A DNA stretch of 64,000 bases from a bacterium (GCA_021851735.1 JAJZCD010000001.1:35078-99077), one strand, 5' to 3'; shown: positions 58,567 through 61,880, counted from the first letter of the stretch. A program made the numbers and translations. Notes: a model not told the origin generated them from the sequence alone.

Positions 58567-59127
58567 ATGCATCATCATCGTTTTACGTATTCGGAAGCAG
58601 AACGACGAAAACGCCAGAATCCAGAAGCGCTGCTACACGGTATGGGGCTTCAGCCCGGCATGTGTTTTGTCGACTTGGGATGTAACGATGGATTTTTTAC
58701 GCTTCCGGCTGCGCGGATAGTCGGTCCGAACGGCAAGGTTATTGCACTTGATATTGATGAAGCGGCACTCGGACGCCTTACGGAAAAGCTGCAGTCTGAG
58801 CATATACAAAATGTTGAGGTGGTCGCGAGTACAGCGGAAGCTTTCGATACATACAGTGATTGTGCGGACATCGTCTTTTTCGGCATGGTGCTCCATGATT
58901 TTCAGGACCCGGTTCAAGTGCTTCGAAACGCGAAGCGAATGTTACACAAGGACGGCTTTATGTATGATTACGACTGGAAAAAACAACCAAGCGAATTGGG
59001 CCCACCGCTTGCTATACGCCTAAGTCCAACACAAGTTGCCGCATTAGCTCAAAAAGCGGAGCTCCATGTTACTGCAGCGGAAACTGTCGATGATAATTTC
59101 TACGCGGTGACGATGCGTTTAGGATAA
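58567..59127 (+). CDS. class I SAM-dependent methyltransferase
   Basis: 186 aa. Motif I FVDLGCNDGFFT, acidic post-I ALDID, and VFFGMVLHD. Confidence 0.8.
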   Translation: MHHHRFTYSEAERRKRQNPEALLHGMGLQPGMCFVDLGCNDGFFTLPAARIVGPNGKVIALDIDEAALGRLTEKLQSEHIQNVEVVASTAEAFDTYSDCADIVFFGMVLHDFQDPVQVLRNAKRMLHKDGFMYDYDWKKQPSELGPPLAIRLSPTQVAALAQKAELHVTAAETVDDNFYAVTMRLG

Positions 59128-59574
59128 ACGAAATTCCTGACGAGCATTCTTGGGAAAATGTTCAGCGTCAAATAGCACGAATAGCTCTGGCTTGATACGA
59201 TAGAACCTGTGTGGGCGATCAGGGTGTGCTATGAACTGTTCGATTTGTTCGCTTGAGAATATGCGGTCTTTATAGACGCTTATGGTTTTTTGGACATCAC
59301 CTTCATCTGTCAGTAGAGAAGCGACGCCTTCAAACTGTAATCCTCTAGATTTATCTTGTGGTGTTTGCGGTAGGCACATTGACCCGGCGACGTATGGGTC
59401 TTCCATTACTTCTGCTGAATGGCGTGTTGTTGTGGCTGAGAAGTAGTAAATGCTCATGCTGTCATCCGTTGCAAACCATACGTTGCACACCCATGGTTTG
59501 CCATTTGATACGGTAGCTAGGTGCATCATTTTTGCATCCTGGAGATATGTTTGGATGAGCTGTTTTACTTCCAT
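59119..59574 (-). CDS. pyridoxamine 5'-phosphate oxidase-family (FMN-binding split barrel) protein
   Basis: 151 aa. MHLATVSNGKPWVCNVWFATDD is typical of the general-stress-protein-26/PNPOx-like N-terminus. Confidence 0.6.
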   Translation of the reverse strand: MEVKQLIQTYLQDAKMMHLATVSNGKPWVCNVWFATDDSMSIYYFSATTTRHSAEVMEDPYVAGSMCLPQTPQDKSRGLQFEGVASLLTDEGDVQKTISVYKDRIFSSEQIEQFIAHPDRPHRFYRIKPELFVLFDAEHFPKNARQEFRLS

Positions 59575-59847
59575 TGTGCTTTCCTCTCTAGCTTTGTAAG
59601 AGTGTAAACCCTGCTTCTACAGTAGCTTAATTGTACCGCATCGTCTGAAAAGCATAGTCATGTCGGATTGTCGTCTTTGATCTTATATTCATAGGATTAT
59701 TATACCCGTACCCCATAGAATGATTAGGCTGCAAGCTGCCGTATATCTAACGTACGAGGGGGCTTTAGTCGCTATTTCATTCTTGAGAGTAGGTCTTGAT
59801 AACTGTTGACACTCAGTTACTGACATTCAAGATGAAAGGTAAGCTAT

Positions 59848-60912
59848 TCAATCGTCACTAGGTCTGTCAGGCAACTGCCCTAAGGCAAGTCTGTATAACA
59901 CTACGAGCTCATTAACGTAAGCTGCAAGTGGCCTGTCCGGTACAACTATTTCATTGCCACGGTACGGGAATGTGTCGCCAGGCTCATCGCCGATGGCAAC
60001 AGGTGGTAGCATATCGATTCCCTTTGCGGCCGCCCATCTAATTGCCTGCTGTGTCGCTTTTGGTCTGTATTGGCCGTTAGTGGCTATAACTAGTTGTATT
60101 TCAGGGTCAGGAATGAGCGCCTGCACCACATCAAGGCCAGCTCCAAGGCCTCCGTTGGTCTGTATAAGTATGAGTTTTGGAAGGGTTGGGTCGTTATTAG
60201 CCATCTCGATTATTCTTGGTGCGACATCGTTTTCGCGCGTGGCTGTTCTTGTATAACCTTCCGCCAAAGCCGTGGCTAAGTTTGCATCAAACTCTGTGAA
60301 TGCTCCTTGCCCCCTACCGGGTAAAAAGTCAAGGTTGCCAGCCAGCTCCTGAATTGTCTCGTGTTCGGGATTTTTAACTACTGCTATGGTGCCATCTTTC
60401 CCGAGCTTCTCTTTAGTAGGTTCGATTATACGAGTGCTTCCAAATTGGTACAAAGTCTTTGACGATATGCCTCCCCCGTATACTTGGCGCATAGCTCTAC
60501 CGGCAACTCCACGACGCACTACTGAAGTCCTCATAGCCCCGCCCTCAACTACGAACACAGCGCTAGATGGGTCAATTCTGTAAGTATCCTCTTCTTGTCT
60601 TATTCCGTCCGCTACTCTTCGCAGGCCTAATCTCATAGCAATATCTAAGATAGCCCCCTCATTACCACTTATAGCCGCCTTCATTGCCTCAGTTGCTTGA
60701 GCTTTTTCAATTAATGTCCATCTGGGGTCAAGGGACTTTCCTCTCTCGGGTGGGGGCAGAATAATTTCGGCAACTTCTGATGGTGTTGCATCTGCGGGTA
60801 GGATGGCCTTCGTGGCCGCTATGTCGGCCAATAAGCCGCTCCTTAACTCATTCTCGATTATTGCTGCGGTGTGCGCAGCTTCGTAATCTGTTCCTGCGTA
60901 TCCTTCTCCCAT
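59848..60912 (-). CDS. uncharacterised 354-aa soluble protein
   Basis: Strong AGGAGG RBS 7 nt upstream of the ATG and coherent composition. Two Gly-rich segments (VFVVEGGAMRT and LIQTNGGLGAGLDVV). No family recognised. Confidence 0.5.
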   Translation of the reverse strand: MGEGYAGTDYEAAHTAAIIENELRSGLLADIAATKAILPADATPSEVAEIILPPPERGKSLDPRWTLIEKAQATEAMKAAISGNEGAILDIAMRLGLRRVADGIRQEEDTYRIDPSSAVFVVEGGAMRTSVVRRGVAGRAMRQVYGGGISSKTLYQFGSTRIIEPTKEKLGKDGTIAVVKNPEHETIQELAGNLDFLPGRGQGAFTEFDANLATALAEGYTRTATRENDVAPRIIEMANNDPTLPKLILIQTNGGLGAGLDVVQALIPDPEIQLVIATNGQYRPKATQQAIRWAAAKGIDMLPPVAIGDEPGDTFPYRGNEIVVPDRPLAAYVNELVVLYRLALGQLPDRPSDD

Positions 60913-60976
60913 GGCAAACCTCCTGTGTAAGTGGGTAAAAATTAATAATTAAGGTATGCCGGTACTATACGCGACT

Positions 60977-61013
60977 TATTTATATTGTCAATATGCAATT
61001 CACAATATAAATA
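60977..61013. promoter_or_regulatory. perfect 12-bp inverted repeat (candidate operator) in an AT-rich divergent promoter region
   Basis: TATTTATATTGT-N13-ACAATATAAATA, followed by TATAAA/TATAAG hexamer reiterations. It lies between divergent genes 59848..60912 (-) and 61089..61880 (+). Confidence 0.5.
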
Positions 61014-61088
61014 TAAATATAAGAGAACAAACAAAATCGTGAAATAACTATTCACAAAAAATAAGTTTATGGTATTATATAATTCGTA

Positions 61089-61880
61089 ATGGAAAATATC
61101 TTAATTGAAGCCGGTCTTTCTAAACTGCAGGCTCAGGTGTATTTGTATTTACTGGATAACGGGTCAACGTATCCGACCGCCCTTATGAATAAATTGAAAA
61201 TAACAAGGACGAATACCTATAAAGTTTTGGAATCCCTTGAGCGATTAGGGCTTGCACGAAGACAGATGCAACGTAATAAGGCTAGCTATTACCCTGAAGA
61301 CCCTGTAGCTCTTACTTCTCTGGTTGCAGAGAAACGCAACAGTGTCATTGCCCTCGAAAAGGGTATTACGAAAGCAATGAACGGTCTTGAGACTAGGTAC
61401 CATAAGCATAGATCGAGTGCACAAGTAGAAATACTGACAGGTAGACGATCCATCGAAAAATCGTATACTGCGCAGGCAGAGCTTAGACAGCCGATACACT
61501 TTCTCAAGAGCCGAGCAGATATTCCATTTATGGGCTATGAAACTATGGTGGCGATACGTAAGAACCAAGGAAAGCTTTCTGGTTCCAGATATGGTATAAC
61601 TACAGATTCTGCTGAGGCTCCAAAGGATCACGCTATTGATAGGCGCACCAATCTAGAACGAACATGGATTGATGAGAATAATTACACTGCTCCGGTGGAA
61701 TGGTCAGTAAGTGGAGATATGCTTGTCATCCAAGTATTTAACGAAGAAGGTAAAAGTATAGTTATTAGGAGCGATCTAGTCGCTGATGCATTCAGGCAAC
61801 TTTGGCGTATAGCTGATACCGCACTGCGAAGCTCCGAAAAGTATAAGAATTATCCACTCAAAGCTACTAGAAAGAAATGA
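61089..61880 (+). CDS. TrmB-family (winged-helix) transcriptional regulator
   Basis: 263 aa. N-terminal LSKLQAQVYLYLLDNGSTYPTALMNKLKITRTNTYKVLESLERLGLARR. TATAAT sits 5 nt upstream of the ATG with no SD (leaderless-like). Confidence 0.7.
   Translation: MENILIEAGLSKLQAQVYLYLLDNGSTYPTALMNKLKITRTNTYKVLESLERLGLARRQMQRNKASYYPEDPVALTSLVAEKRNSVIALEKGITKAMNGLETRYHKHRSSAQVEILTGRRSIEKSYTAQAELRQPIHFLKSRADIPFMGYETMVAIRKNQGKLSGSRYGITTDSAEAPKDHAIDRRTNLERTWIDENNYTAPVEWSVSGDMLVIQVFNEEGKSIVIRSDLVADAFRQLWRIADTALRSSEKYKNYPLKATRKK

Follow-up and report, generated by a model that had tools for sequence, protein, structure and literature searches.

A TrmB-family regulator paired with an undescribed protein family across candidate operators in Saccharimonadales

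A 64,000-nucleotide stretch of a bacterial genome (GCA_021851735.1, JAJZCD010000001.1:35078-99077; hereafter the window, from whose first letter positions are counted) carries a gene for a 354-residue orphan protein and, divergent from it, a gene for a 263-residue regulator of the TrmB family. We propose that these two genes form a self-contained switch, in which two 19-bp palindromes, located in the spacer that separates the genes, most likely serve as the sites where the regulator binds as a dimer. As each palindrome overlaps the -35 box of one of two back-to-back promoters, binding would shut off both the regulator gene and the 354-residue gene, until a small-molecule signal would release the regulator from the DNA. 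The 354-residue gene would be the only cargo of the switch, encoding a cytoplasmic protein that would act as an enzyme on, or at least as a binder of, a charged small molecule, for example a nucleotide or a phosphorylated compound. The regulator and its cargo would be inherited as a unit, which in this genome lies outside its usual position between rpoD and polA. Taken as a whole, this is the explanation towards which we lean.

The divergent pair and its candidate operators

The locus comprises the following features:

59848-60912, minus strand: gene for the 354-residue orphan protein (the A family), identified by its open reading frame, its homologues and an AlphaFold2 model
60919-60924, minus strand: Shine-Dalgarno sequence AGGAGG of the 354-residue gene, 6 nt before its ATG, read directly from the sequence
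60964-60991, minus strand: predicted sigma-70-type promoter of the 354-residue gene (TTGACA, 16-nt spacer, TATAGT), from a promoter scan
60986-61004, no strand: Box P, TGTCAATATGCAATTCACA, from the palindrome and promoter scans
61038-61056, no strand: Box T, CGTGAAATAACTATTCACA, with one mismatch, from the palindrome and promoter scans
61051-61078, plus strand: predicted promoter of the regulator gene (TTCACA, 16-nt spacer, TG-extended TATTAT), from a promoter scan
61089-61880, plus strand: gene for the 263-residue TrmB-family regulator, identified by PF01978, a PDB profile match and orthologue alignment

The original prediction, made from the sequence alone, had described both open reading frames, the AGGAGG ribosome-binding site and a 176-bp AT-rich spacer, and all of these were found in place. 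The spacer (60913-61088) has a GC content of 0.275-0.30, compared with 0.45-0.51 on its flanks. The same prediction had named the divergent gene as a TrmB-like winged-helix regulator, which agrees with a match of its product to the TrmB winged helix-turn-helix family PF01978 well above the gathering score (E 1.1e-11; residues 8-72 score 44.9 bits, the cut-off being 25.6). In a profile search of the PDB with the regulator orthologues, the nearest structures were those of TrmBL2 (5BOX, 5BPD and 5BQT; E 2.6e-8), over positions 11-103 only. The protein consists of an N-terminal winged helix-turn-helix, a coiled coil and a C-terminal domain whose sequence is conserved in the Saccharimonadales orthologues; this last domain contains an invariant E204-W205 within the motif consensus PVEWSV and lies beyond the end of the PDB profile match at position 103, and neither Pfam nor NCBIfam gave a match outside the helix-turn-helix. 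Among 401 genomes sampled from Saccharimonadales, 98 encode regulator orthologues (E<=1e-5), about 60 of which align over the whole length, making full-length orthologues far commoner than members of the A family. Our literature search found no paper naming both 'Saccharibacteria' and 'TrmB'.

To what extent does the pair hold together? A TrmB orthologue lies immediately upstream of the A-family gene, and divergent from it, in seven A-family lineages with differing flanking genes (the window; L001/L002/L010; L003/L004; L005; L008/L013; L009; and L011/L016). The conserved pairing, kept while the neighbouring genes vary, bears out the suggestion in the original prediction that the two genes make up a self-contained regulated module. 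In a further locus (L020) the regulator is divergent from the A-family gene with two small open reading frames between them, and in another (L021) a very distant A homologue (E 4.6e-7), in which TSSHY replaces TNGQY, has a divergent TrmB orthologue one small open reading frame away. Moreover, the identities of regulator and cargo to the respective window proteins drop in parallel (55/54, 51/47, 41/39 and 32/38%), in keeping with the two genes being passed on together.

A 19-bp palindrome, TGTSAA-N7-TTCACA, emerged from an alignment of 24 regulator/cargo intergenic regions, which contain 28 copies of it with at most one mismatch, compared with 0.1 expected from shuffled sequences. In 16 of the 24 regions, a copy that we call Box T has its end 29-31 nt ahead of the regulator ATG, and many loci have another, Box P, on the cargo side. 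Within the window, both boxes coincide with predicted promoter elements. The -35 box of the cargo promoter, TTGACA (60991-60986), is one half of Box P, which itself sits within a longer inverted repeat (60977-61013); this promoter matches 11 of 12 consensus positions, and is a consensus match only. The -35 box of the regulator promoter, TTCACA (61051-61056), is the right half of Box T. Its -10 box, TATTAT, ends at 61078, only 10 nt before the ATG, and no Shine-Dalgarno sequence is present, suggesting that the regulator mRNA is leaderless or nearly so. The same regulator-promoter geometry is found at other loci. We infer repression, with release by a ligand, as the mode of control.

Box P is the sole perfect TGTSAA-N7-TTSACA site in the 1.13-Mb genome. 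Box T is among 6 one-mismatch sites genome-wide, compared with 5 for a control pattern, and a pattern with N8 spacing, used as an extra negative control, gave 10 matches compared with 10 in its control. Beyond the two spacer boxes, sites in this genome thus occurred only at the control level, with no sign of a further regulon, and the genome-wide uniqueness of Box P suggests that the regulon is probably just this pair. Taken together, we consider it likely, judging from strong comparative evidence, that the locus encodes a dedicated TrmB-like autorepressor with two promoter-embedded candidate operators and one cargo gene.

A structured RNA in the spacer was also considered and rejected, as no Rfam match was found in or around it at E<=0.1. 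Downstream of the cargo gene, a 273-bp gap (59575-59847) separates its stop codon from a co-directional PNPOx-like gene (59119-59574). Terminator prediction on the strand of the 354-residue gene gave no site in this gap, so that read-through into the PNPOx-like gene is possible; this neighbour is not conserved at other loci.

The cargo protein family and its predicted fold

The 354-residue protein belongs to a family that is undescribed and specific to Saccharimonadales. A search of 5.8 billion proteins returned 52 relatives, all unnamed or "hypothetical", and every named source among them was Candidatus Saccharimonadales or Saccharibacteria. When 1.84 billion cluster representatives were scanned exhaustively with HMMER, only 78 clusters of the family emerged, mostly full length, and the two sets of homologues together indicate that the open reading frame is a real gene. 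The distribution of the family is patchy, with members in 7 of the 401 sampled genomes and in none (0/23) of the other genomes of the window's own taxonomic family. As the original prediction had stated, the protein falls in no recognised family, having no match in Pfam (E<=1), NCBIfam, PADLOC or PHROGs, and a confident match to a housekeeping family, which would have spoken against the prediction, was likewise absent from the searches of Pfam, NCBIfam and, by Foldseek, the PDB. The PADLOC models likewise found no match in the 263-residue regulator. The 354-residue sequence contains no signal peptide or membrane segment.

Across 100 family members, R64, G125, R133, G280, Y282, G308, D309, E310, G312, R327 and Y332 are invariant or nearly so, and E123, Q156, G158, N279, Q281, R283 and K285 are conserved in at least 85%. 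To place these residues in a structure, we built an AlphaFold2 model from a 35-sequence alignment, which reached a mean predicted local distance difference test score (pLDDT) of 92.7 and a predicted template-modelling score of 0.91. In the model, a helical N-terminal domain (approximately residues 1-95) is followed by an alpha/beta core that is built from five beta-alpha units and interrupted by three insertions, each a beta-hairpin or meander. The conserved polar motifs are predicted to fall at the C-terminal ends of successive strands of this core: E123-G-G follows strand 118-122, Q156-x-G closes strand 153-158, N279-G-Q-Y, the start of the full motif N279-G-Q-Y-R-x-K, closes strand 273-279, and G308-D-E closes strand 302-309. 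The near-invariant R133, R327 and Y332 lie away from these motifs. The C-terminal ends of strands are the place where Rossmann-like proteins bind their ligands, and the position of the motifs there suggests a binding or catalytic crevice.

Fold comparison gave the model no solved relative. Foldseek found no PDB match at E<=1e-3 (best E 0.17, template-modelling score <=0.25), the weak matches being assorted three-layer alpha/beta proteins; a search of BFVD gave nothing significant (best E 0.08), and the A-family profile matched no PDB sequence. The analysis supports a Rossmann-like core, in which a Gly-rich loop comes directly after the first strand. The biochemical reading, in which the cargo protein has a Rossmann-like fold, binds a small molecule and probably works as an enzyme on a charged ligand, is in our judgement evenly balanced, resting on the placement of residues and on weak fold analogies.

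The original prediction had drawn attention to two Gly-rich segments and, speculatively, to the paired motifs of LOG/SLOG-type Rossmann domains. The first segment, VFVVEGGAMRT, proved to be conserved across the family (88% of members have E123, and 95% have G125), whereas the second, LIQTNGGLGAGLD (containing GGLGAGLD; residues 248-265), is not conserved, having no column at or above 85% apart from P245. If the 354-residue protein were a LOG/SLOG-type nucleotide-processing enzyme, its Gly-rich loop, EGGA(N/M)(K/R)TS, would be in a suitable place directly after the first core strand, and c3, a possibly related family described below, weakly resembles nucleotide-binding Rossmannoids, including CARF domains, in structure. 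One of 35 A-family members also matches the SLOG family YAcAr, but at an E value (0.026) expected by chance among 35 proteins. PF03641, by comparison, is absent from both the protein and the six-frame translation of the genome, although it was found in 13 of 14 control genomes, no LOG structure occurs among the top 50 Foldseek matches in the PDB, and the unconserved second segment leaves no equivalent of GGxGTxxE. We therefore regard the LOG/SLOG assignment as very improbable, and retain a Rossmann-like small-molecule binder of its own family as the preferred description of the cargo.

Two other candidates were rejected. The consensus GGANKTS resembles a Walker A motif, but a P-loop NTPase is disfavoured by the wrong spacing, by the replacement of K128 with R in the window protein, and by GTPase matches in Foldseek that reach only E>=0.3 with template-modelling scores <=0.22. 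A defence or phage origin was set aside in view of the PADLOC and PHROGs searches and the BFVD fold search. Separately, we observed that codons 126-128 (60528-60536) give GGAMRTS in the window copy compared with GGANKTS in the family consensus, and that a small module, 'DGSxW ... Y(S/T)GP(D/N)D', matching no Pfam family, occurs either fused to the C-terminal ends of longer A-family proteins (P0022, P0024 and P0039) or as a separate open reading frame between regulator and cargo (L020:379-831 and L049:2569-3339).

Alternative cargo families in the rpoD-polA slot

Outside this genome, the regulator orthologue sits between rpoD and polA, facing a gene of the A family or of one of two further families, c1 and c3. 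The genes that recur on one side of the pair are dnaG, rpoD, an AAA_18 kinase, a polyprenyl synthetase, and a squalene/phytoene synthase or PF02578 (YfiH-like) gene, with polA on the other. The neighbourhood, described in the original prediction as accessory-looking, has that character in this genome only, and elsewhere the pair occupies a slot among core genes. We also observed that the polyprenyl synthetase gene, often with a squalene/phytoene synthase or PF02578 (YfiH/LACC1-like) gene, lies just past the regulator in many genomes (loci L029, L032, L035, L038, L039 and others), which may reflect ancestral gene order or may hint at isoprenoid or envelope chemistry.

A census of divergent neighbours at the 30 best regulator loci found the A family at 2 loci directly adjacent and at 2 more with small open reading frames between, c1 (~317 residues) at 9, c3 (~290 residues) at 8, L045 included, and a family named c21 (~380 residues) at 2, the remaining neighbours being other orphans. 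None of these slot families matched Pfam, except for one c3 member with a weak match to DUF218 (E 0.021). The c21 family shows no relation to A, c1 or c3; its proteins are Cys- and His-rich and are encoded behind the same Box T palindrome (L042:2440-3588 and L050:2451-3590).

Profile comparison showed demonstrable homology between c1 and the A family (hhalign P=1.9e-6, probability 89.7%, 293 columns over both domains). For c3 the sequence relationship is suggestive (P=0.036 against A, and P=0.0038 over 146 columns against the merged A and c1 profile). The c3 family also aligned weakly with DUF218 (P=5e-4 over 116 columns). Its model (pLDDT 95.4) is a plain five-stranded Rossmann-like domain, and the structures most like it in the PDB are TcdA, CARF domains and universal stress proteins that bind ATP or cAMP (E 1e-3 to 3e-2). 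Counted over the 401 genomes, A is present in 7, c1 in 22 and c3 in 42, and none of these genomes combines two of the families; this speaks only weakly for one slot with alternative occupants, since about 3 overlaps would be expected and related genomes are not independent.

Could the three families then be branches of one fast-evolving superfamily, derived from a Rossmann domain of the DUF218/YdcF type (or of the universal stress protein/HUP type), with the 354-residue protein an extensively elaborated version of a fold class that is already known? The three share a slot opposite orthologous regulators, similar lengths and a series of motifs that runs in the same order along equivalent strands (GG loop, RR helix, G(S/N)xR, TE(F/A)D, (T/S)N and (G/S)D(E/S)), and the c3 alignments just described, together with the lack of co-occurrence, lean the same way. 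For the 354-residue family itself, however, the DUF218/YdcF assignment was tried and rejected: by eye the motif order was promising and the top local hhalign matches fell on the predicted motifs, yet the alignments gave P=0.25 for A and P=0.42 for A and c1 merged, and Foldseek provided no support. Furthermore, PF02698 finds nothing in the six-frame translation of the genome, though it was found in most control genomes, the best matches of the c3 model are universal stress proteins and TcdA (E 1e-3 to 1e-2) and not YdcF, and the A model has no significant structural match of any kind. YdcF itself (PDB 3CA8) is not within the top 50 Foldseek matches of either the A or the c3 model. A common superfamily of known fold class is thus possible but, in our assessment, doubtful.

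A bolder version would make A, c1 and c3 one ancient, fast-evolving Saccharimonadales superfamily of small-molecule-binding Rossmannoids that, joined to a TrmB-like autorepressor, formed an ancestral switch in the rpoD-polA region. The A fold would then be one without a solved relative, and the switch would answer a metabolite of the epibiotic lifestyle, either host-derived or linked to the envelope and isoprenoids. We consider this version unlikely, and keep to the narrower proposal of a regulator with a single small-molecule-binding cargo.

The turnover of cargo genes also bears on whether the 354-residue protein is an enzyme at all. It might instead be a partner of the regulator (a co-sensor or anti-repressor), or a component of conflict or host interaction whose divergence reflects an arms race. 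Such a role would suit a cargo that diverges much faster than its regulator (A and c1 are ~19% identical, compared with 30-45% for the regulators), a slot in which one family replaces another, the patchy distribution of the A family, and, in this genome, both a position among decaying accessory genes and the occurrence at other loci of paralogous TrmB-like regulators beside a GNAT-APH fusion and an ABC-F ATPase. It sits poorly with the empty PADLOC and PHROGs searches, with invariant charged residues at strand ends that resemble a binding or catalytic site, and with the location of most pairs in a core-gene neighbourhood and not in an island. A non-enzymatic role accordingly seems quite improbable to us, and a small-molecule enzyme or binder remains the cargo that we favour.

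Including the one in the window, this genome encodes three TrmB-family regulators of ~265 residues. The paralogue on contig 43 (L082:1408-3768) is divergent from a gene for a 511-residue GNAT-APH fusion, followed by a HAD hydrolase gene, and the spacer contains a variant palindrome, TGGCAACAATTTATTGACA (TGGCAA-N7-TTGACA), such that the pair resembles the window's cassette in design but appears to have another half-site. The paralogue on contig 21 (L083:1939-4546) lies directly downstream of, and co-directional with, a gene for a 553-residue ABC-F type ATPase. The rpoD-polA slot of this genome (contig 20, L085:122-8506) has no TrmB/cargo pair, and beside polA lie a toxin-antitoxin pair (AbiEi/AbiEii), two ATPases (a P-type cation ATPase and a DUF4143 ATPase) and a membrane-anchored orphan of 352 residues. 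The orphan was considered as a displaced slot occupant and rejected as an unrelated membrane or surface protein. The absence of the A gene from the other sampled genomes of the same taxonomic family, combined with the decaying genes around the window's pair, suggests that the unit was relocated or was acquired from another Saccharimonadales lineage.

Weight of the proposal and comparison with known systems

Several observations weigh against the proposed switch. In the A-type loci L001 and L003 the spacing of Box P is N6 and not N7, and a palindrome that covers a -35 box could also serve activation. Two A-family lineages (L012 and L006/L007/L014) have no regulator, one of them being at a contig end. 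The C-terminal domain of the regulator matches no known ligand-binding domain in Pfam or by PDB profile. The window protein carries M127 and R128, where N127 is found in 88% of 100 members and the consensus at 128 is K, and no family, fold or neighbour of the 354-residue protein points to a chemistry or a substrate.

Saccharibacteria have tiny genomes with few regulators and many genes of no known function. Against this background the locus stands out as a cleanly delimited predicted regulon, with one regulator, two operators, one cargo gene and a precise DNA motif, and its cargo family combines a confident model with no solved relative detectable by Foldseek. While the locus alone settles no long-standing question, it provides a tractable entry to the way TrmB-like switches work in bacteria of the candidate phyla radiation, to their ligand and to the function of a family, or perhaps of a superfamily, found in a conserved chromosomal slot in about one sixth of the sampled Saccharimonadales genomes.

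Among known systems, LOG/SLOG proteins have in common with the 354-residue protein a Rossmann-like core and a Gly-rich loop after the first strand. LOG proteins carry the paired Gly motifs GGGxxG ... PGGxGTxxE, of which the first loop of the A family, EGGANKTS, shares only the GG. DUF218/YdcF proteins (PF02698) have a similar order of elements, in which strand 1 leads into a GG loop and strand 4 into (T/S)xxx(Y/H)xx(R/K); to these elements the 354-residue protein adds an N-terminal helical domain and three beta insertions.

The closest parallel for the regulator is with TrmB and TrmBL2 of Thermococcales, which share with it the winged helix-turn-helix, the coiled coil and, as a candidate in the present case, a palindromic DNA target near the promoter, TrmBL2 being also of equal length (263-264 residues). 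The target of the Thermococcales TrmB family is the TGM motif. The regulator described here differs in being bacterial and in having a C-terminal domain that is not recognisably sugar-binding; its candidate operator, in place of the TGM motif, is TGTSAA-N7-TTCACA lying over a bacterial -35 box, and, as far as the sequence indicates, what it appears to control is a single divergent gene and not a sugar regulon or chromatin.

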